Below, piece by piece: positions 12,641-56,162 of a DNA stretch of 64,000 bases (positions within the stretch are counted from its first letter, which is position 1; every line of letters begins with the position of its first letter). Position numbers and translations under genes: made by a program. Location: UHGV virus genome UHGV-0174779, one strand, 5' to 3'. This stretch comes from a virus. Below the pieces are notes generated by a model that saw only the letters and a program-made list of their open reading frames with translations, had not been told where the DNA came from and did not search any database.

Positions 12641-12669
12641 TTGACATGTTAGGTAGTAAGAAATATATT
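12641..12669 (+). promoter_or_regulatory. Sigma70-type promoter (TTGACA-N17-TATATT)
   Basis: Consensus -35 at 12641-12646 and -10 at 12664-12669, about 40 nt upstream of gene 12711. Confidence 0.5.
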
Positions 12670-12710: not shown

Positions 12711-13190
12711 ATGAATAAGGCAAACTTTGTAATCGGTGCTCTGGTATTAACCTTCGGTAGCATGGCTATCGCTGACAAGATTGCTAGTGCTCCAGTTGCT
12801 CAAGCTGCTGTAGTCATGAGTGATGCTGCTGACACCTTCGTTAGCAACGCCCCTAAAGGTTGGCTGGTTTGTAAAGGATTGGATTCAGATAATGTCACTA
12901 CGTTGATGAAAGTTAAATTATCTAACGTAACCAATCGTGGCATGGTATTGTCTACTCGTACACTTGACAACCAGAATAATGAGGATATTCTGCTTTCCCG
13001 TAAAGACAATGACCCAGAGTTGATTACTTTTGGCGATGTGCAGACTATTAAAGGTTCTAAAGTTGTGACTAATCTGGTAACATATGGCACAATGCAAGAA
13101 ACCATGTTAGCCACCTCTGTCTACAGTGGGGAAGATAACAGTATTTGGACTTTCCGCTTTCAGATGGGTGATTGTGTTAAAGCAAAATAA
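12711..13190 (+). CDS. Secreted early protein (signal peptide)
   Basis: 159 aa; N-terminal MNKANFVIGALVLTFGSMAIA signal-like segment; AAGGAA RBS. Confidence 0.6.
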   Translation: MNKANFVIGALVLTFGSMAIADKIASAPVAQAAVVMSDAADTFVSNAPKGWLVCKGLDSDNVTTLMKVKLSNVTNRGMVLSTRTLDNQNNEDILLSRKDNDPELITFGDVQTIKGSKVVTNLVTYGTMQETMLATSVYSGEDNSIWTFRFQMGDCVKAK

Positions 13191-13257: not shown

Positions 13258-13587
13258 ATGAAAACTCTGATTGCATCTGCTCTTTTATCTGTAGCTGTTC
13301 TCTCAACTGTAGGATGCTCTTCTTCTCCGCGTCCCAATGGTTGGTGTGCTCTGGAAGTTGAGGGCACTTGTGTGATGCGTTGGAAAGATGGTGTTAAGGT
13401 TCCTGCTGGTGAGATTGATATGAAGTACGAAGGTGCTAGTTGCTCTAATGGTGGATCTGTTGATGAGAAGGCCTATCGTGAGCGTGATATGAAAACACAA
13501 GCTGATTGGAAGAAGTCAGACTTTATTTCCCGAGCAACTCATTGCGGTGGCAACACTTCCACTAAGGGTAAAGAATGGGACATTTAA
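13258..13587 (+). CDS. Lipoprotein (paralog of 21232-21528)
   Basis: 109 aa; lipobox LSTVGC; RPNGWCALEVEGTCVMRWKDGVKVPAGEIDM shared almost residue-for-residue with the ORF at 21232. Confidence 0.65.
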   Translation: MKTLIASALLSVAVLSTVGCSSSPRPNGWCALEVEGTCVMRWKDGVKVPAGEIDMKYEGASCSNGGSVDEKAYRERDMKTQADWKKSDFISRATHCGGNTSTKGKEWDI

Positions 13588-14417: not shown

Positions 14418-14493
14418 GCTTAATCTTTCTGCTGTATTGTGCCGTGGTCATGCCTATGGTCATAATTTATCTGATTCTCTAATCCTTCCTGTG

Positions 14494-14525
14494 AGCCTCC
14501 TAGTGAGGCTTTTCTCATTTCTAAG
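14494..14525 (+). terminator. Rho-independent terminator
   Basis: AGCCTC-ctagt-GAGGCT followed by TTTCTCATTT. Confidence 0.45.
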
Positions 14526-14776
14526 GCGATTGTATGCCTTACCCTCTTTTAGCTCGTTGTGATGCGTCTGAGAGCGTCAAATATTGCTTTACAAGCCTGT
14601 TCTAGTGTGTTATTCGCGTGCGCGTTCCTTTATATCTCTCCTCCCTGAAAATAATCAAAATAAAGGTTGCTTTCCTTCCTCACTTCCTCTATTATCTATT
14701 CATCGGTTAAGCAGTACCAAGTAGACAACCTGATAAGTCGTACGAAAAACAGGTAATCGATAAGAAATAAAAAAGA

Positions 14777-14805
14777 TTGACAAGATGCTCAAACGTAGTA
14801 AGATG
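14777..14805 (+). promoter_or_regulatory. Sigma70-type promoter (TTGACA-N16-TAAGAT) with A-rich upstream tract
   Basis: First of three tandem promoters in a 1.6 kb non-coding region. Confidence 0.5.
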
Positions 14806-14923
14806 GGTATCAGAAACAAAGCAAGGAAACTTGCAAATGCTCTTTAAAAACTTATCGTCCTGCCCTTTCGCAAAGATTCGCGCGAGATAAGGGAAAAGAA
14901 TAAAAAGAGGACGATAAAAAGAG

Positions 14924-14951
14924 TTGACAAGGTAATCTAATAAGTTATAAT
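14924..14951 (+). promoter_or_regulatory. Sigma70 consensus promoter (TTGACA-N16-TATAAT)
   Basis: Perfect -35 and -10 hexamers, preceded by aaaaagag A-tract. Confidence 0.6.
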
Positions 14952-15099
14952 GATTACCAGTTAGCAGATACACCGCTAACAAGTTCTTTAACAATATGAC
15001 CTGATTCACTAGCCGAGCCGCTTAGTAATCCTCAATCAAATATAGCTGATTGATATATCCTCCCAATAAAGGGAACGACGAAAAAGATTAAAAAGATGG

Positions 15100-15128
15100 T
15101 TGACAGGCGCTGAGAGATAGGTCATAAT
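15100..15128 (+). promoter_or_regulatory. Sigma70-type promoter (TTGACA-N17-CATAAT)
   Basis: Third tandem promoter, preceded by aaaaagatgg. Confidence 0.55.
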
Positions 15129-16051
15129 GAGCACATTAGCTAAGGGAAACATTCCGAAGCGAAGCGAGACAACGGCTAACAGTTGCATAGCGTGAGTAAA
15201 CATGCTGATAGATTTACCGCTCTTTAACAATTTAAACGTTCTTCTATATCGGTTGAACATGCTTGAAGATAATAACCATCGGAAAGTATGCCAGATAAAA
15301 CGGTGTAAGATTCTCTAAACTATCAGAGGAAACAATCTTGCAATCCCTTACTGGAAACGTCACCACTGACAAACGGATTCACTGAGTGCACGCAGAGACT
15401 TAAGCTAATCGCCCACGGTTAAGGGTAGCGGCGGTCATCGCTAACAAGGCGCTACAGTGAAAGAAGTTAATCAGGGTAGACAAGTCCGACGAATACAAGC
15501 TCAATTGCGAGCGGCGGGGAGCGGTTAAAAAGTGGCAAATTGCTATTTAACAATAAGGCTTAGTGTGAACGTTTACGATGTGAACGGCTTGAGATTCATC
15601 TTATGATGAAAGTACATAGTCGGTTTATGTAGTAAACTTGCCGAAAGATATAAAACGTCGGAACATTAGACGGTCAATGACTCTTTCGCAATAGTATCCC
15701 GTAGTGGGCGATGACTAGCGATTGAGAGTTGATACAAAAGGATAGGCGAGAGCGAAAACAAAGTAGACGATATTGCCGACGGTTACAATAAATGTAACTA
15801 ATTAGAGTCGGACGCACTGCCTTATTGTGATGATTGATCATCGCTATCAGGTCGGCTTAGTTTATAGCGACTAATTAAAGATACCAGATGAAACATCACG
15901 GATAAGGAGGCGGAAAGGTTAACTCCTGATAAGACCGCCTCACTTACCTGTAACTACTTAAAAAGTGAGTGGTTAGAGTTAAGTTAATAGTGACTTAAGC
16001 AAGCTCATAGAGAGCGGGGCATAGTGCCCTTACAATTGAAAGGTGAATATC

Positions 16052-16973: not shown

Positions 16974-17010
16974 GAGGCGCTATCTTAACGGGTAGCGCCT
17001 TTTCTTTTAT
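16974..17010 (+). terminator. Rho-independent terminator
   Basis: AGGCGCTA-N10-TAGCGCCT followed by TTTCTTTTAT. Confidence 0.55.
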
Positions 17011-17774: not shown

Positions 17775-18218
17775 GTGGCTAAATCAAAAATCAGCATGAA
17801 GGGCGGTCGTTGTTTTGCTATCTCTGAATTAGAGAAAGAGAAACCAAAGGCAACCAATCACGTCAGTAAGCGTAGTTTAAAACGTCGTGCTGCAAAGGCT
17901 GAGGCTGAATCCCATACTCCTTCCAGTGTGGCAAAACGTGTAGGCCATCGTGTTCATCGTGCTGATGCGTTATTGTTAGCCGATCATAAACGTTCTTTAT
18001 TACAGAGCGGGGGAGCTAAAACAGAAGAGGAGAAGAAGTTAGAAATCTTCTGTAATGGTCGCACCCGTGGTAAGCAGAAGTTTAAGGGTAGCACGAAAGA
18101 CCCTCAAGCATTCCCTAAGACAAGCCAGTGCGCACCTGATGTTTTCTACGCAGATAGTAAACACAAGTGGGGAGTTGAAAAATACATTGACCCCATCAAA
18201 GAGGCAAGGGTTAAATAG
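17775..18218 (+). CDS. Hypothetical basic protein
   Basis: 147 aa, Lys/Arg-rich, GTG start with AAGGA upstream. Confidence 0.5.
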   Translation: MAKSKISMKGGRCFAISELEKEKPKATNHVSKRSLKRRAAKAEAESHTPSSVAKRVGHRVHRADALLLADHKRSLLQSGGAKTEEEKKLEIFCNGRTRGKQKFKGSTKDPQAFPKTSQCAPDVFYADSKHKWGVEKYIDPIKEARVK

Positions 18219-18298
18219 TAGGACTATAGCCCCCTCTTTTAGTACTATGACGCTCTCTCTGTCGCGTAGTGCCCTCTCCCCATTTGAAGCTTCCGCAT

Positions 18299-18322
18299 AG
18301 CCGCCTTTGAGCGGCTTTTTGC
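18299..18322 (+). terminator. Rho-independent terminator
   Basis: AGCCGC-ctttga-GCGGCT followed by TTTTTG. Confidence 0.5.
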
Positions 18323-18383
18323 GTTGCTGTAAGTGCATTTGCGAGTGTATTTATAGCAACGGTCATGTGTTGCTTTCAGGTTT

Positions 18384-18410
18384 GCCCCGGCTACGGCTGG
18401 GGCTTTTTTG
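18384..18410 (+). terminator. Rho-independent terminator
   Basis: GCCCCGGC-tacg-GCTGGGGC followed by TTTTTTG. Confidence 0.55.
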
Positions 18411-18458
18411 TACCCGTAGAATAGGAGGTAGCAAGTTCTGATAACAACGGCCCAGCTA

Positions 18459-18848
18459 ATGTTGACATTGACTATTTATTATGAGGCAGGGAATCAGCCA
18501 ACCGCATGTAAAGCTATGGTTGCGGATACCGTGATAAATAGAATGGCCCAACGAAAACTGACCGCTGAACAGGTGATAAGACAAAAGAACCAGTTTGAGT
18601 GGATTCCGGTACTATTAAAACAGGAGAAACCTTATAAACGTTATGTAAAGCTGATTCGTGATAAAAATCCGATGACTAAGCAAGCCATTGGAGAAAGCGA
18701 GCGGCTAGCTAAACGTGCCCTTAAGAAGAATTATGTTCCGCTGTACAGTGGGACTTACTTTCAGAGTAAGAGCGAAGGGGTGCCAAAATGGTATGCCAAT
18801 CCTATGTATTGTGGTGATTTAGTGTTCGATAACAGCTCTAGGGAATAA
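18459..18848 (+). CDS. SleB-like cell-wall hydrolase (candidate endolysin)
   Basis: 129 aa; YYEAGNQ...CKAMVADTVINRMA...QKNQFEWIP resembles the SleB/Hydrolase_2 core. Confidence 0.55.
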   Translation: MLTLTIYYEAGNQPTACKAMVADTVINRMAQRKLTAEQVIRQKNQFEWIPVLLKQEKPYKRYVKLIRDKNPMTKQAIGESERLAKRALKKNYVPLYSGTYFQSKSEGVPKWYANPMYCGDLVFDNSSRE

Positions 18849-19806: not shown

Positions 19807-19840
19807 AAAAGGCTGCCTTCGGGTGGCCTTTGTTGTTTTA
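19807..19840 (+). terminator. Rho-independent terminator
   Basis: AAAGGCTGCC-TTCG-GGTGGCCTTT followed by GTTGTTTT. Confidence 0.6.
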
Positions 19841-21231: not shown

Positions 21232-21528
21232 ATGAGTTGGGGTGGTGTAATATCCTTAATCTGTATCTTCCTTGTCTGTGTGGTCCTTACAGGCTGCGTA
21301 CAGAGCCGTCCTGATGGATGGTGTGCAGTAGCAGTGGAAGGTGTTTGTGTTTCTCGCTGGCATAAGGGTGAGAAGGTTCCTTCTGGTGAAATTGATATGC
21401 GCTGGAACGGAGCAACCTGCTCTAATGCTAACCCGTCTATCAACGAAGAGAAATCTACGCCAGACAATGTTGTGATTGACACAGCGTTGTGGTGTGGTGG
21501 CTCAGTAAAAACAACCGGTAAGGAGTGA
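21232..21528 (+). CDS. Lipoprotein (paralog of 13258-13587)
   Basis: 98 aa; lipobox LTGC; RPDGWCAVAVEGVCVSRWHKGEKVPSGEIDM. Confidence 0.65.
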   Translation: MSWGGVISLICIFLVCVVLTGCVQSRPDGWCAVAVEGVCVSRWHKGEKVPSGEIDMRWNGATCSNANPSINEEKSTPDNVVIDTALWCGGSVKTTGKE

Positions 21529-22889: not shown

Positions 22890-23040
22890 CGTAATTATTC
22901 GGTTCGTAAACGGACAGAAAAAGGTAGCTAAATAAGCCCTCTTCTCTCCTCCTTTTAGTACTATGACGCCTCTTTTTAGGCGGCCCAATTTGCGTAGGGA
23001 ATTCCCTCTACGCAGCCATAATTTTTAAGGAATTTCCCCT

Positions 23041-23274
23041 ATGTCTAAAGTAAGTGCAATTGATGCAATCCGTCAACCGTTCCAGTTCCAATCCAAATCA
23101 ACCCAAACCTTCAGCGAATCTAAGCAAATTCGCTTGGGTGGCACAGAGAAAACTGTGTTCGATCTGGCTAAAAACAAGAGCGTTACCGTAGTTGATGGTG
23201 GCACTCTGGTTAACGTTTCTCATCGCATCCGCACTGGCAAAACTGCCAAAGACCGTACCAAGAAAGGTGAGTAA
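23041..23274 (+). CDS. Hypothetical protein
   Basis: 77 aa ORF. Confidence 0.45.
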   Translation: MSKVSAIDAIRQPFQFQSKSTQTFSESKQIRLGGTEKTVFDLAKNKSVTVVDGGTLVNVSHRIRTGKTAKDRTKKGE

Positions 23275-38945: not shown

Positions 38946-39017
38946 TTGGTAGTAGATATGATAACTCTCAAATGTATATAGAGTACAATAAGAATTTGTA
39001 TTTTACAGGAGAGAGTT

Positions 39018-43587: not shown

Positions 43588-43620
43588 GAGGCTACCCAAT
43601 CGGGTGGCCTTTTCTTTTAT
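43588..43620 (+). terminator. Rho-independent terminator
   Basis: GGCTACCC-aatc-GGGTGGCC followed by TTTTCTTTTAT. Confidence 0.55.
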
Positions 43621-46546: not shown

Positions 46547-46576
46547 AAAGCTGCCTTAGGGCGGCTTTTCTTGTCT
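46547..46576 (+). terminator. Rho-independent terminator
   Basis: AGCTGCC-ttag-GGCGGCTT followed by TTCTTGTCT. Confidence 0.5.
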
Positions 46577-48509: not shown

Positions 48510-48545
48510 ATAGCTTAGCCACCTTCGGGTGGCTTTTTTCGTTGG
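48510..48545 (+). terminator. Rho-independent terminator
   Basis: GCCACC-ttcg-GGTGGC followed by TTTTTTCG. Confidence 0.6.
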
Positions 48546-51746: not shown

Positions 51747-51790
51747 ATAAAGCCCTCTTGGATTTCTCCTTGAGGGCTTTTCTTTTATCA
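51747..51790. terminator. Bidirectional rho-independent terminator between convergent operons
   Basis: AAAGCCCTC-N14-GAGGGCTTT with T-runs on both sides. Confidence 0.6.
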
Positions 51791-54700
51791 CTCCTTAGGT
51801 CGAACTCTTACACGGAGTCTCGATTGACGCTTACTGCGTTCAAGCTTCTCTGACAATGAGCCACGTTTAATCTTCGGCTTCCCTTCGTCATTAAACTTCT
51901 CCAAGAACTGTAAGTACTCAGTACGATTCGTTGTCTTGTAAGAAGGAATCTTAATATCAGGGTTCTCTTCAATCACGCGTCTCATCTTCGCTACATCATC
52001 CCTGCCAAGCAACTTACTCTTAGCCTGTTCAGCTGTAGAACCAAAGATCTTCTCCAGTGCTCTGGATTTGTTACCACCTGCGGAAGAAGCACCAAGTTTA
52101 GCAATGGCAGAATAATCATCAGCACTAAACCAAGCTACTGGATTATCACCATACTTCTTCTTGTTTTCAGCAGCAGTCTGCAATGCACGTACAAAGCGAC
52201 GGTTGTTACCAGCCTTGTCAGCACCATGAACCCTGTCTAAAACTTCAGCCACACTGACTAACTCATCTAAGCTCTTCCCATTTAAGAAAGCTTTCTCTGC
52301 TTTATCAGCAAAGGCTTCTTCCTGTTGTTTGATACTTTCCAAGATATCGGAACTTGCTTGAGATCTTTCATCGTCAGGCAGAGCAGAACGAACCTTCTCC
52401 ATCTCCAACTCTTCCTCTTGCAGTTTCTTAATATCAGAGTCAACCTTCTGAGCCTCCTCAACAGCCTTCCTAGTATCCGCATCCAAGTTATCAAGCTTAC
52501 CTTCAGTATCTCCAGTAACCTTAACAATCTCTTTCTCGATAGGAGTCATTGATTCGTACTTCTTAGCAAACTTCTCAACATCAGCCTCGATACGAGAACG
52601 AGCATTCTGATGCTCAGTCGGAGTCATAGGCTTCTCAAGAAGTGCATAACGGTTATCCATATAGGAACCAGCAAATGCTTCAGCATCCTCTCTAGATATG
52701 CCCTTATCTTCCATAGTACGCATCAGGCGGCGATGAATATCATCACGTTGACGTTGTACTGCCATAAGATCATTCTCACGCTCTTGGGCCGCTTTAAGCT
52801 CTTCACTGCGCTTAACTCTCTTGTCCACATCAAACTTACGGTTCATTTCTTCCGCTTGCTCATACATCCTGTTCCACTTAGCCTGACGAGCATCTTCCTC
52901 TGCATCAGTTAAACGACGCTGACGATCAAGGTAATCTGACTCGGCGTTATGGATACGTTCAATGTAACTACGGAACTTCTCTGGAGGAACTGGAGAGTTC
53001 TTATCGTGGTGAGCAGCCAACTGTTTCAATGTACGAGATTCCTGAGCCTCACGAACAGGTTTAGGTAAACCTTCCATCATCTTCTCAATCTCACTCTTCT
53101 GAGCTGCAATAGCCTCTAGAGTTTTACGTTCATTCTCAACAGCAGCCTTAGCATCTGAACGAGCCTGAGCTTTGTTTTTCAGAGTAGCAAGACGTTCTTC
53201 ACGAGCTTGTATGTGTTTAGCAAAAGCTTCGTACTGAGAGTTTTTGTTAGCTTTATTGAAGGCATTCACTTCTCTGTTATAGGTGTTAATAAACCCATCC
53301 CAAATATCCTTCATCTGACCAACTTCCAAAGCCTCCTCCCTACCAGCCTTCTCTGAAGATTTAAACTTCCCATCTACAAAGTCATTCATCAACTTACGCA
53401 TAGCATCTTTCTGAGCAGGACGTAAAGGTTCTGAATCAATCAAAGCATCAATCTCAGACTGAAGCTCTTTCTTCTGGTCAACCAGTTTAGGAGCATCTTT
53501 CCTATCAAAAGCTTTGTTCTCTTCTAGAGCTTGTTGATACAACCTATCAAACTCATCCTCACGCTGCTTCTGATACAATCTTTCAGCACGACGTTTCAGA
53601 CTATCCAAGTTAGTCACGTTCCCACCTAAACCTTTCTCCTCAGCACGTAATGCCTTAGTAGCAATGTCTTCTGGTAGACCACGTTCCTTAACCCATTCAG
53701 CAAAATTAGTTCGTACAGTGTTGTTCTTAGCAGTAGCAATACCTTGCTGAGAAGCTAGCTGGTTACGAGCCATTTCTTCATGACGTTCAGTGTTGATAGC
53801 ATTATCTTCCTGACGAATGCGACGCATCAATTCCTTAGGGTCACCTTTATAAGCCAAGAAGTTTTCAGCAGTAGCTTTAGCCTTAGCAGCTTTAGAGTAC
53901 AGAGAACGAGCAAAACGTTCTGCACGATCTTTAGTAGCCTGACGAGCAGCACTAGACATAGCAGCTAAACGTTCTACACCACTTGCCGGTTTAACGTCCT
54001 GTACAGCTTCCTTAGGAGCTTTAGGAGCACGGGCAGGTAATGGCTCAGCTTTGACTGTTGGTTCCTCTACAGTTGGTTCTGGAGCCTGTGCGGCCTCTTC
54101 TTGAGCACGACGTTGTTCTGCCTGTTTAACTGCGCGTCTTTGAGCAACTAAATCACGAGCCGTAAGAGGGGTTTCTTGAGGAGCAGAGGAAGGAAGATTT
54201 TCTTCCGTCACAGTACTAGAAGAAGGCTCCCGAACCGGTTCGGTTTCCACATCATTTTGAGTCTTAAATTTAATGTCATCAACAACTGGTTCTTCTTCCA
54301 TCTTAGCCCGAGCTTCATCAGCAGTAGATTTAGCACGAGCAACTTCCAAATCACCACGAGCTAAAGAGCGGATAGCTTCACTGTTAGATTCTTGTTGCTT
54401 AACACGTTGAGAGCGAGCACGCTGAGAAGAGAAGCGATTCAGAGCATATTTAGCAGCACCGAGAGTATTCATTACCAGACTAGGAGAAGAAGCCTCACGG
54501 AAGCCATCATCAGTCAGGGAAGTCCAGCCACGATCTTGGTTGCTCATGAACTTAGCCGTATTGTTCAGAGTGTAAGCATCTTGGATAGGATTAAAACCTT
54601 CAGGCATACCTTTCAGTTTCTTCAACCCACCGATAGCTTTCTTCATCTCTGGAGAAACATTATCAGCCATCTTCTGTAGTTCAGTAGCTTTCTCTACAAA

Positions 54701-56095
54701 GTTATTAAAATCTTCACCTTCACGAGCTTTGAATCGATTTGCTTCATTGTAGAAAGTCTTGTAAGCATCAATGAAATCACGGTCAGCTTGTGTACGATTC
54801 TTAATATCAATCGGACTACCAGTAAAATCACCAGAAGCTCGGAGAGAAGTTAATTCACGGTCTAGGTTATCTAGAACATCTGTAAGAGCTTTCGTGTTGT
54901 CTTTGGTGTAGTCAGCCATCGCATCCTTCATAGCAACAGCCTGTTTCTGGTTGTGCTCATTATCAGCGAAAGCTTTACCACGAGTCTTAGCAGGAGAAGC
55001 TAAAGGATTAAGGCCAGGAATATTGGAATGTTCTTTCTGAACAGAAGCAGCTTTCTCAGCACGAGCTTGGTCAGTATTAAGAATACGCTGAGCAGCAGGA
55101 GAATCTACAGCAACAGCATCTGTAATACGGAATCCATTCTCATCCAGAAGATTCAGAGCAGAAGCAGCGTTAGCAGTTTCAGCTTTAGAGTAAGCTTCTT
55201 TCAATTCATCAATATTTTTAGCACTACGAATCAGTTCGTCATCAGCAGCAATATCAGTCTTCGCATACTCTGGAGTGTTCTTGAAGACAGCAGAATCCGG
55301 ACGGCTAATCAAACCATGAACTCCACCAACTGCGCCACCAAATGCAGCACCCATAGCCCCTTCTTCTATAACACCTTCCAATGTCTTAGCTAGATCATTG
55401 TCATCACCATATTTGTTCTGAACCTCAGCAGCACCAACAAGAGCACCACCTTTAGCACCAGCCACTGCGTTACTAGCAACGTTCTGACCGATACGACCAA
55501 GAGCTGATTCAGCTGTCCCAACAGCACCCGGAAGGATTCTTTGAGCTGCATAGTTAGCACCACCAACTAGGGCTGCATCTAGAACAGACTTATCTTCCCC
55601 CTCTTTAGGGGTTTGGTCTGCATATGCACGACCGGTCTCACGACCTGCAATGATAGCAGCGGCAGCTAATGGGTTAGCAACTGTCAGACCAATGTCGGCA
55701 ACCACCCCAGCATACTGACCAGCAGACTTACCAATCCCATCCTCAATCTTATCCATACGTTCTTTCAAGAGGTTTTGAGCGTTCTCTTGCATACGCTTCC
55801 CGTAACCAGTTTGTGCTCCAGTTAGATCTTCACCAATCTCAACTAAGCCTCCAATACCTCTAGCAAGATTAGCAGAGATATTTGCACCACCAGATTGAAG
55901 AGCATTTGACACACCTTGAGCAAACTCACCTATAGCACCACGTTCTTCTTGTTGTGGTTGTGCTACTGGTTGTTCCTCAGGAATAGAGCCACCTGCTGCC
56001 TTATATTGTTCTCTCATTTGAGCTTGACGCTCCGGAGAGGCATTCAGATACGCAGGAGCTTTGGAAGCTTCTTCCCACGGTTTAATGTTAGCCAT
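51788..56095 (-). CDS. Large virion protein (about 1435 aa; internal or ejection / tape-measure-like)
   Basis: ORF 51788..56140; start moved to ATG 56095 (MANIKPWEE...) with AAGGAG RBS; Ala/Gly-rich N-terminal region then very long charged helical regions. Confidence 0.55.
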   Translation of the reverse strand: MANIKPWEEASKAPAYLNASPERQAQMREQYKAAGGSIPEEQPVAQPQQEERGAIGEFAQGVSNALQSGGANISANLARGIGGLVEIGEDLTGAQTGYGKRMQENAQNLLKERMDKIEDGIGKSAGQYAGVVADIGLTVANPLAAAAIIAGRETGRAYADQTPKEGEDKSVLDAALVGGANYAAQRILPGAVGTAESALGRIGQNVASNAVAGAKGGALVGAAEVQNKYGDDNDLAKTLEGVIEEGAMGAAFGGAVGGVHGLISRPDSAVFKNTPEYAKTDIAADDELIRSAKNIDELKEAYSKAETANAASALNLLDENGFRITDAVAVDSPAAQRILNTDQARAEKAASVQKEHSNIPGLNPLASPAKTRGKAFADNEHNQKQAVAMKDAMADYTKDNTKALTDVLDNLDRELTSLRASGDFTGSPIDIKNRTQADRDFIDAYKTFYNEANRFKAREGEDFNNFVEKATELQKMADNVSPEMKKAIGGLKKLKGMPEGFNPIQDAYTLNNTAKFMSNQDRGWTSLTDDGFREASSPSLVMNTLGAAKYALNRFSSQRARSQRVKQQESNSEAIRSLARGDLEVARAKSTADEARAKMEEEPVVDDIKFKTQNDVETEPVREPSSSTVTEENLPSSAPQETPLTARDLVAQRRAVKQAEQRRAQEEAAQAPEPTVEEPTVKAEPLPARAPKAPKEAVQDVKPASGVERLAAMSSAARQATKDRAERFARSLYSKAAKAKATAENFLAYKGDPKELMRRIRQEDNAINTERHEEMARNQLASQQGIATAKNNTVRTNFAEWVKERGLPEDIATKALRAEEKGLGGNVTNLDSLKRRAERLYQKQREDEFDRLYQQALEENKAFDRKDAPKLVDQKKELQSEIDALIDSEPLRPAQKDAMRKLMNDFVDGKFKSSEKAGREEALEVGQMKDIWDGFINTYNREVNAFNKANKNSQYEAFAKHIQAREERLATLKNKAQARSDAKAAVENERKTLEAIAAQKSEIEKMMEGLPKPVREAQESRTLKQLAAHHDKNSPVPPEKFRSYIERIHNAESDYLDRQRRLTDAEEDARQAKWNRMYEQAEEMNRKFDVDKRVKRSEELKAAQERENDLMAVQRQRDDIHRRLMRTMEDKGISREDAEAFAGSYMDNRYALLEKPMTPTEHQNARSRIEADVEKFAKKYESMTPIEKEIVKVTGDTEGKLDNLDADTRKAVEEAQKVDSDIKKLQEEELEMEKVRSALPDDERSQASSDILESIKQQEEAFADKAEKAFLNGKSLDELVSVAEVLDRVHGADKAGNNRRFVRALQTAAENKKKYGDNPVAWFSADDYSAIAKLGASSAGGNKSRALEKIFGSTAEQAKSKLLGRDDVAKMRRVIEENPDIKIPSYKTTNRTEYLQFLEKFNDEGKPKIKRGSLSEKLERSKRQSRLRVRVRPKE

Positions 56096-56162
56096 AACGT
56101 CTCCTTTTATAAATAAAAATGTCCTACCCCCTATATACATTATAGAAGGCAGGACTTAGGTC

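Follow-up and report, generated by a model that had tools for sequence, protein, structure and literature searches.

Results

Genomic setting of the two sites

The DNA analysed here (the window, 64,000 nt in all) belongs to the phiEco32 group (Kuravirus, Gordonclarkvirinae), and megablast aligned it to phiEco32 at ~90% identity in reverse-complement orientation. Its early and middle genes form a plus-strand cluster at 12711–51580, and its late genes lie on the minus strand. Early promoters have been published only at the start of this cluster (PMC8948821; PMC4281155 Table S2), and they map to window positions 12641, 14777, 14924 and 15100. Many plus-strand terminators interrupt the cluster, among them those at 14493, 16974, 18299, 18384 and 23457. 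A family of intrinsic terminators that resemble one another, with CCTTCGGGTGGCC and then a T-run, was found on the same strand at 19816–19837, 43597–43618, 46554–46575 and 48522–48543. The operon thus punctuated has promoters only at the cluster start and at three gp36 sites. Separately, we observed a 121-nt direct repeat of 70% identity (13330–13450 versus 21307–21427, plus strand) that joins the early ORFs 13258–13587 and 21232–21528, which probably encode small secreted or lipoprotein-like paralogs.

Two intergenic sites within the cluster share a repeated sequence. The first, s1, directly follows the gp120 homolog (17775–18218, plus strand), and the second, s2, stands ahead of the gp93 homolog (23041–23274, plus strand), whose start is 75 nt away. 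The gp94 ORF, 38 aa long in phiEco32, has had its 5′ two-thirds deleted in the window, and its last ~45 nt with the stop codon TAA (22933–22935) are retained beside s2 (22890–22936). A previous sequence-only reading of this DNA had placed both copies immediately downstream of genes; this is correct for s1, but at s2 the ~45-nt gp94 remnant intervenes after 22889.

The gp120 protein is basic (KRSLKRRAAKAEAE) and without a family match, and a single-sequence structure prediction of its fold was uninformative (pLDDT 54). The early proteins near the sites gave no Pfam match and fell only into PHROGs of unknown function. Since gp120 homologs are confined to Gordonclarkvirinae, the 7-11-like phages were unusable for comparison, which was thus kept to this subfamily.

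The repeated box and its copies

An exact search located the 18-mer CTTTTAGTACTATGACGC at 18236–18253 (s1) and 22952–22969 (s2), both on the plus strand and both at the positions given by the sequence-only reading. With up to three mismatches allowed, three matches were found in the window, compared with 0.05 expected from shuffles. We estimate the chance of some exact 18-mer repeat anywhere in 64 kb at ~0.06, so that the exact match is only suggestive in itself and conservation in relatives is decisive.

The core of the repeat is TACTRTGACG. It is preceded by A-[G/C], with which it makes a 12-nt box, A-S-TACTRTGACG, at 18241–18252 in s1 and 22957–22968 in s2, and by a pyrimidine tract. The box is asymmetric and non-palindromic across genera. 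Upstream, both copies carry a pyrimidine tract with "agccc(c)tct". At s1 this tract (ccccctctttt, 18230–18240, plus strand) can pair with the purine-rich end of the gp120 ORF, and at s2 (22937–22956, plus strand) it can pair with GGACAGAAAAAGG (22914–22926) in the gp94 remnant. The likeness between s1 and s2, with indels, extends ~45 nt upstream (AAARAGG..TAAATAR) and ~10 nt downstream, so the repeated unit is longer than 18 nt. Its upstream part covers the last codons and the stop codon of the preceding ORFs. We rejected a duplicated coding fragment, which the sequence-only reading had named as a possible refutation, as its source: the gp120 and gp94 ORFs are unrelated except in their last few codons, and the sequences downstream are non-homologous.

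A third copy, s3, was recovered by the search with up to three mismatches (CTTCTAGTACTGTGACGG, 54205–54222, minus strand; core 54206–54215). It lies inside the late gp26 homolog (51788–56140, minus strand), sense to late transcription, where it is read as ...S-T-V-T-E-E..., and the GTG of its box (TAGTACTGTGACG) is in frame with gp26. A pyrimidine tract precedes it, GGAAGA-aaa-TCTTCC follows it, and a downstream stem starts at its GACG. We found s3 at the same place in all genomes checked (phiEco32, TH38, ECBP2, SU7, TH42 and EP335). However, its conservation is only moderately above background, because the genera also share 79% identity in the coding sequence around it. That s3 belongs to the element family is probable but unproven.

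Two complete genomes, TH38 and TH42, each contain exactly three perfect cores, all of them sense to local transcription. On the genome the copies are convergent, with s1 and s2 on one strand and s3 on the other. The window also holds a degenerate relic, site 0 (14542–14580, plus strand), where the 11-mer CCCTCTTTTAG is identical to s1 and is followed by ctcgttg and a hairpin, TGATGC-gtctgaga-GCGTCA; the box is not kept. This relic is situated after the terminator at 14493–14511 and upstream of the early promoter cluster, and its downstream part is not conserved in EP335. Both copies originally reported are thus genuine, but the count of two has to be raised to three per genome plus one degenerate relic. 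A palindrome, GGGAATTCCC, was considered as a further family and dropped because it occurs in a single copy.

Conservation in relatives

With BLAST, 98 records matched the s2 region and 77 matched the s1 region, all from Escherichia/Shigella phages of the subfamily. About 20 distinct sequences were read, covering all three Gordonclarkvirinae genera: Kuravirus (phiEco32, Paul, NJ01, TH38, 4E8 and KBNP1711), Nieuwekanaalvirus (EP335) and Suseptimavirus (ECBP2 and SU7). Also read were TH42, which is filed under Kuravirus and is Suseptimavirus-like at its three sites, one uncultivated viral contig and seven metagenome loci. Throughout this set, the 10-nt core was invariant save for one A/G position. 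This applies at s1 to each of the ten named phages and the metagenome contigs, and at s2 to all sequences read. A pyrimidine tract of 10–22 nt was always present ahead of the box.

The flanks, by comparison, have diverged or recombined while the core has stayed invariant. The tract ahead of the box is a different one in 4E8 and KBNP1711, and in 4E8 and TH38 it has been swapped. Extra ORFs occur upstream of s1 in Paul, EP335 and TH38, and in Suseptimavirus an ORF is inserted directly after the s2 hairpin.

A pattern scan of viral contigs returned only kuraviruses and an unrelated, abundant phage gene with the same 15-mer in its coding sequence, and viral-contig and metagenome scans with gp120 added few variants. 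Among IMG/VR contigs (loci L003–L026) we noted an abundant unrelated group with TTAGTACTRTGACGCC inside a conserved coding region; the opposite strand there encodes a protein beginning MADWRHSTKQW..., and the box match is coincidental.

The exact-match and motif search in the genome and its relatives, which the sequence-only reading had recommended, confirmed the repeat, found its core conserved in all three genera and added the third copy. Its view that the repeated intergenic element is genuine, not a product of chance, is therefore upheld by conservation across the records found with BLAST and the ~20 sequences read. The element is real, conserved and new relative to the literature searched, where no paper mentioned the motif string and no paper on Kuravirus antitermination or transcript mapping was found. 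The box is almost certainly an undescribed control signal.

Hairpins at the 3′ end of the box

At both sites the box ends in GACG(C), and these bases form the 5′ arm of a small hairpin whose loop is rich in pyrimidines. Hairpin A at s1 (18249–18268, plus strand) pairs the GACGC of the box with a 3′ arm GCGT(A). It is weakened to 4 bp in the window, compared with 5–8 bp (GACGC/GCGUC) in relatives. Its counterpart at s2, A′ (22967–22982, plus strand), has the form CGCCT-cttttt-AGGCG, its 5′ arm overlapping the box end. The sequence-only reading had described a pyrimidine tract and GCGTAG-containing hairpins as common to both sites. The tract is indeed found at each, but GCGTAG is not a shared feature: it is specific to the window at s1, where relatives read GCGTCG, and what is common is a 3′ arm complementary to GACGC.

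The stems differ between lineages. At s1, Kuravirus has GACGC[10]GCGUC, extendable with G·U pairs, and Suseptimavirus has GACGCUC[5]GAGCGUC or GGGCGUC with a U-tail. At s2, the stem is CGCC(U)/(A)GGCG in Kuravirus, GACGCC/GGCGUC in TH38, and GACGCU/AGCGUC followed by GUUUUU in 4E8 and EP335. Among 17 distinct s1/s2 sequences, pairing was present in 90.6% of cells, as against 19–62% when the partner was slid, and the complementary 3′ arms at s1 and s2 lie in non-homologous downstream sequence. Some of the pairs are G·U (GACGC/GUGUC in TH38 and GACGCUC/GGGCGUC in TH42), which is tolerated only on the sense RNA strand. Two-sided covariation is absent, since the 5′ arm never varies. Per-sequence shuffle tests gave moderate values at s1 and weak ones at s2, and in 4E8 and KBNP1711 almost nothing of the hairpin is left at s1. 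A U-tail accompanies it in only about half of the lineage/site combinations: a U-tract follows directly at s1 and s2 of Suseptimavirus and at s2 of Nieuwekanaalvirus and 4E8, and none does so at s1 or s2 of Kuravirus. The hairpins with U-tails at Suseptimavirus s1 and 4E8 s2 are annotated as terminators.

Upstream of the box, a further hairpin, H0, is tentatively predicted. At s1 the tract would pair with AAAGAGG (18198–18204), enclosing the gp120 stop codon (18216–18218). In 4E8, a synonymous gag-to-gaa change at s1 is matched by C-to-U in the tract, and at s2 of 4E8 and EP335 a compensatory change turns GGA/UCC into GGU/ACC. In a composition-preserving shuffle, however, H0 was significant at s1 in some lineages only and was not significant at s2. 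Most of the pairing is explained by purine/pyrimidine composition, and H0 was kept tentative for this reason.

Terminators and terminator-like hairpins that follow the sites

Two strong intrinsic terminators follow s1 on the plus strand. T1 (18299–18321; AGCCGCC-ttt-GAGCGGCT plus TTTTT), separated from the box by 46 nt, is shared by all three genera and is an annotated terminator in phage 4E8. T2 (18384–18409; GCCCCGGC-tacg-GCTGGGGC plus TTTTTT) carries a terminator annotation in both Paul and 4E8. Both are present after s1 in all genera, and the segment 18210–18420 folds far better than shuffles (z = −4.15). At s2, A′ is followed by hairpin B (22992–23013, plus strand; GCGTAGGGAATTCCCTCTACGC), which is strong and terminator-like, with a T-run at a distance; in Suseptimavirus it is replaced by the inserted ORF. 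The strong terminator at 16974, upstream of s1, has no box ahead of it.

Several other features of this region were observed in passing. A long imperfect hairpin at ~18322–18360, inside a helix of UUUGAAGC and GCUUUCAGG, lies between T1 and T2. The highly structured segment 18280–18410 gave only a weak, sub-threshold Rfam match to MicX (21 bits, where the gathering score is 75); this segment may represent a small structured RNA or a substrate of the RNase III type. Beyond it, no Shine-Dalgarno sequence stands near the start of the gp117 homolog (cell-wall-hydrolase-like; ATG at 18459; 18418–18461, plus strand), and a strong AGGAGG lies 32 nt upstream. In 4E8 the ATG of gp117 is replaced, and the start given in that record is a TTG one codon further downstream.

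boxA elements after the early promoters

The three consensus sigma-70 early promoters (14777–14804, 14924–14951 and 15100–15128, plus strand) are each followed, 30–90 nt downstream, by a match to consensus boxA of the rrn/lambda type (GCTCTTTAACAA) with no more than one mismatch. These matches lie at 14839–14850, 14983–14994 and 15219–15230, and a fourth is at 15542–15553, all on the plus strand; by our estimate ~0.3 such matches are expected by chance in the whole window. Four or five copies occupy the same place in all three genera. Two copies in the window have a small boxB-like hairpin 3–4 nt upstream, a boxB-boxA layout that resembles E. coli rRNA leaders. This arrangement suggests Nus-factor-dependent antitermination of early transcription complexes. 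Such promoter-proximal modification would make it less necessary for s1 and s2 to act as a second, nut-like kind of loading site. The literature search found no paper in which boxA appears together with phiEco32, and the literature searched contained no description of Nus/boxA antitermination in phiEco32-like phages.

Known signal classes compared with the box

At the gathering threshold, Rfam recognised only a tRNA in the whole window, and permissive scans of both sites produced only sub-threshold, terminator-driven matches, so an Rfam family was rejected. The sigma factor of phiEco32, gp36, recognises the consensus tAATGTAtA with base-specific contacts at A-14, A-13, T-12 and G-11 (PMC12276001, PMC4331800). 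The box (AGTACTRTGACG) lacks AATG and was rejected as a gp36 promoter; six gp36 motifs were found elsewhere, at 38970, 43222 and 47681 on the plus strand and at 56134, 10439 and 2221/2311 on the minus strand. A sigma-70 promoter was likewise rejected, because in all lineages only pyrimidine tracts occupy the -35 position, a TGn extension is lacking and the promoter scan did not report these sites.

A leader peptide or mini-ORF was discarded as neither its frame nor its length is conserved. We also rejected an antisense target repeat of the P4 seqA/seqC or P1 c4 type, a wobble-tolerant search for complements in the phage having given chance-level results; an RNAduplex scan of the phage returned only the opposite strands of the sites themselves, no better than shuffled queries. 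For a lambdoid nut site, the expected boxA (CGCUCUUUAACAA-like) is not conserved at every site: only its first 7–8 nt are matched, and this only at s1 of some Kuravirus and Nieuwekanaalvirus genomes, and there is no boxA match at s2, at s3, or at s1 of the window and 4E8.

Discussion

A candidate transcript signal at early-operon boundaries

What the sequences show directly is a conserved box of fixed orientation, with hairpins beside it and terminators; from this we infer action at the RNA level, a binding factor and an effect on termination or readthrough. An asymmetric, invariant 12-mer, always sense to transcription and overlapping the arm of a hairpin that accepts G·U pairs, points to a sequence-specific signal in the transcript, and so does its constant position behind a stop codon and ahead of terminator structures. 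We tentatively favour the possibility that it is a factor-binding box in RNA that modulates transcript 3′-end formation or readthrough at early-operon boundaries, a reading to which we give clearly less than an even chance.

According to this proposal, the element would be a strand-specific, cis-acting signal in which a pyrimidine tract precedes the invariant A-S-UACURUGACG and the four or five bases that close the box (GACG/C) serve as the 5′ arm of the small hairpin. Placed after the stop codon of an early gene block, it would head a series of terminators or terminator-like hairpins (A, T1 and T2 at s1; A′ and B at s2). A sequence-specific factor, most likely a phage early protein and possibly a host factor, would bind the box. 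As the box overlaps the 5′ arm, binding would alter formation of the hairpin, and an altered hairpin would in turn shift the balance between RNA ending and readthrough at the boundaries of the long early operon. With many plus-strand terminators in the cluster, some control of readthrough would be needed. It is also in accordance with this proposal that the element and ~45 nt upstream of it have been retained in the window even though most of gp94 was lost.

Some observations fit less well. Pfam and PHROGs point to no binding factor among the neighbouring early proteins. s3 lies in a late coding region with no terminator nearby, which is a misfit unless this copy is coincidental. The promoter-proximal boxA elements may already supply antitermination, the terminator at 16974 stands without a box, the hairpin lacks two-sided covariation and its U-tail is inconstant.

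Alternative explanations

A broader possibility is that the box is the seed of two sibling sRNAs released from early-gene 3′ UTRs of a strictly lytic coliphage, or the site of a new phage RNA-binding regulator, either of which would reprogram host or phage expression on top of a Nus/boxA system taken from host rRNA operons. We regard this as rather unlikely.

In its specific form, which we judge unlikely, the sRNA explanation makes the box the shared seed of two sibling sRNAs from the gp120 and gp94 3′ UTRs that pair with a host mRNA. Each would be cut just upstream of the box and end at a terminator, leaving ~82 nt at s1 (box, hairpin A, T1 and U5) and ~70 nt at s2. The order of parts is suitable, with a conserved 5′ stretch, a hairpin and a Rho-independent terminator with U-tail at s1 in all genera and at s2 in Nieuwekanaalvirus and Suseptimavirus. 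Moreover, 10–12 invariant nucleotides with a variable body are typical of sRNA seeds, the sole variable position is A/G, either of which can pair with U, and the s1 intergenic region is strongly folded (z = −4.15). However, a complementary target was not found within the phage, and s3 does not qualify as one because it has the same sense as the seed. Neither a promoter nor a good RNase E motif marks the 5′ edge, hairpin A sequesters the GACGC part of the seed, and at s2 no U-run adjoins hairpin B.

We assign a similarly low probability to recognition of the box by a phage or host endoribonuclease that cuts the early polycistronic RNA and the gp26 mRNA. Cuts between flanking hairpins would create segments of differing stability, like RNase III sites in T7 early RNA. 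This explanation accommodates s3, since a site in a coding region is compatible with mRNA inactivation, and it agrees with the sense orientation of every copy, with the intercistronic block boundaries and with a box placed between the predicted stems H0 and hairpin A. Yet H0 mostly reflects base composition, and cleavage of the gp26 mRNA would be costly for the phage. RNase E and RNase III need no invariant 10-nt sequence, no long double-stranded stem surrounds the box, and our search yielded no nuclease candidate.

It is improbable, in our view, that the box acts at the DNA level as a site for a nicking or HNH enzyme or for a replication or recombination factor, or that it is a conserved linker for module recombination. 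The box does lie exactly at mosaic junctions, as the extra ORFs, the ORF insertion at s2 and the swapped tracts indicate, and s1 and s2 are convergent with s3 on the genome. But junctions gather beside any conserved sequence and are expected for a regulatory site as well, and a pure linker would not be invariant throughout the sequences read. The G·U pairs of hairpin A favour RNA, and the asymmetry of the box is a misfit with a dimeric DNA binder.

A phage-specific promoter, in which host RNA polymerase and a phage factor would use TACTAT/TACTGT as a TAnnnT -10 element, is very unlikely. Every copy does contain TAnnnT, conserved 15–20-nt intergenic motifs repeated in lytic phages are usually promoters, and s2 is suitably placed 75 nt upstream of the gp93 start. 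In every lineage, however, a -35 element and TGn extension are missing and the sigma-70 scan passes over these sites; the four bases contacted by gp36 (A-14, A-13, T-12 and G-11; PMC12276001) are missing too, six gp36-type promoters being located elsewhere. A promoter at s1 would fire into two terminators, and one at s3 would be intragenic. Positions 3–5 of the hexamer do not vary, nor does the GACG behind it, a constancy that a -10 element does not call for, and the early promoters published so far lie only at the cluster start (PMC8948821, PMC4281155 Table S2).

The least probable alternative is that the RUG of the box is a Shine-Dalgarno-less start codon, opening a mini-ORF at s1 and s2 and an internal gp26 start at s3. 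The sole variable base toggles ATG and GTG, the s3 GTG is in the gp26 frame, and the box has U at -1 and A at +4, which lengthen pairing with the initiator tRNA, but the s1 mini-ORF varies from 5 codons (phiEco32, EP335 and TH38) to 12 in 4E8 and 17 in the window, that at s2 differs in frame and stop between the window and phiEco32/Paul, the upstream tract is anti-SD-like rather than a Shine-Dalgarno sequence, and the stem of hairpin A begins with the G of RUG.

Significance for readthrough in this phage group

How transcription from one promoter cluster passes many terminators to serve ~39 kb of early and middle genes has not been explained, and the question of antitermination has also been raised for phage 7-11 by its authors (PMC8948821). 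The box at the heads of terminator clusters, together with the boxA leaders, provides concrete handles on this readthrough problem that are open to direct mutation and assay. Engineers of such phages may take the box as a marker of natural module junctions, and also of places where inserted payloads would come under additional regulation.

Comparison with known systems

The middle and late promoters of gp36 are, like the box, short single-element phage-specific motifs conserved in the same genomes, but they have another sequence and other locations. The early-region RNase III sites of T7 are likewise intercistronic signals in early polycistronic RNA with stems flanking them; however, long double-stranded structure defines the T7 sites, and no such stem encloses the box. 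3′UTR-derived, Hfq-dependent sRNAs of the CpxQ and OmrA/OmrB type share a conserved 5′ end of 10–12 nt, a variable body and a terminator with U-tail, a place directly behind a stop codon, and the existence of two paralogs with an identical seed. Against this likeness stand a proposed seed that is partly paired and a search that found no target, processing signal or promoter.

With lambdoid nut sites the box has in common a short linear element beside a small hairpin, sense orientation in the early-operon transcript and more than one copy per genome, and its place, past the end of an early gene but ahead of the first terminators, recalls that of nutR between cro and tR1. A hairpin of 5–8 bp follows the box and overlaps it. 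The s1 hairpin of phiEco32, Paul, EP335 and TH38 even starts with CGCUCUUU, the first 8 nt of consensus boxA. In contrast to nut, UACURUGACG matches neither boxA nor boxB, no N-like protein was found, and one copy lies in a late gene. The sites are also 3–8 kb from the promoters, whereas the true consensus boxA adjoins them.

In the RAT/terminator attenuators of the BglG/SacY type, a protein-binding RNA sequence overlaps one arm, the 5′ one, of a terminator hairpin, and a bound protein and a formed hairpin are mutually exclusive. Their layout of box, hairpin and U-tail is matched exactly by Suseptimavirus s1 and Nieuwekanaalvirus s2, where the box is the putative binding site. RAT itself, however, is an imperfect hairpin of ~29 nt, whereas the 12-nt box is linear; the analysis detected no protein with a CAT domain, and the Kuravirus hairpin is without a U-tail. 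In its logic the box resembles the RAT/antiterminator or nut systems, and it is a member of neither family.
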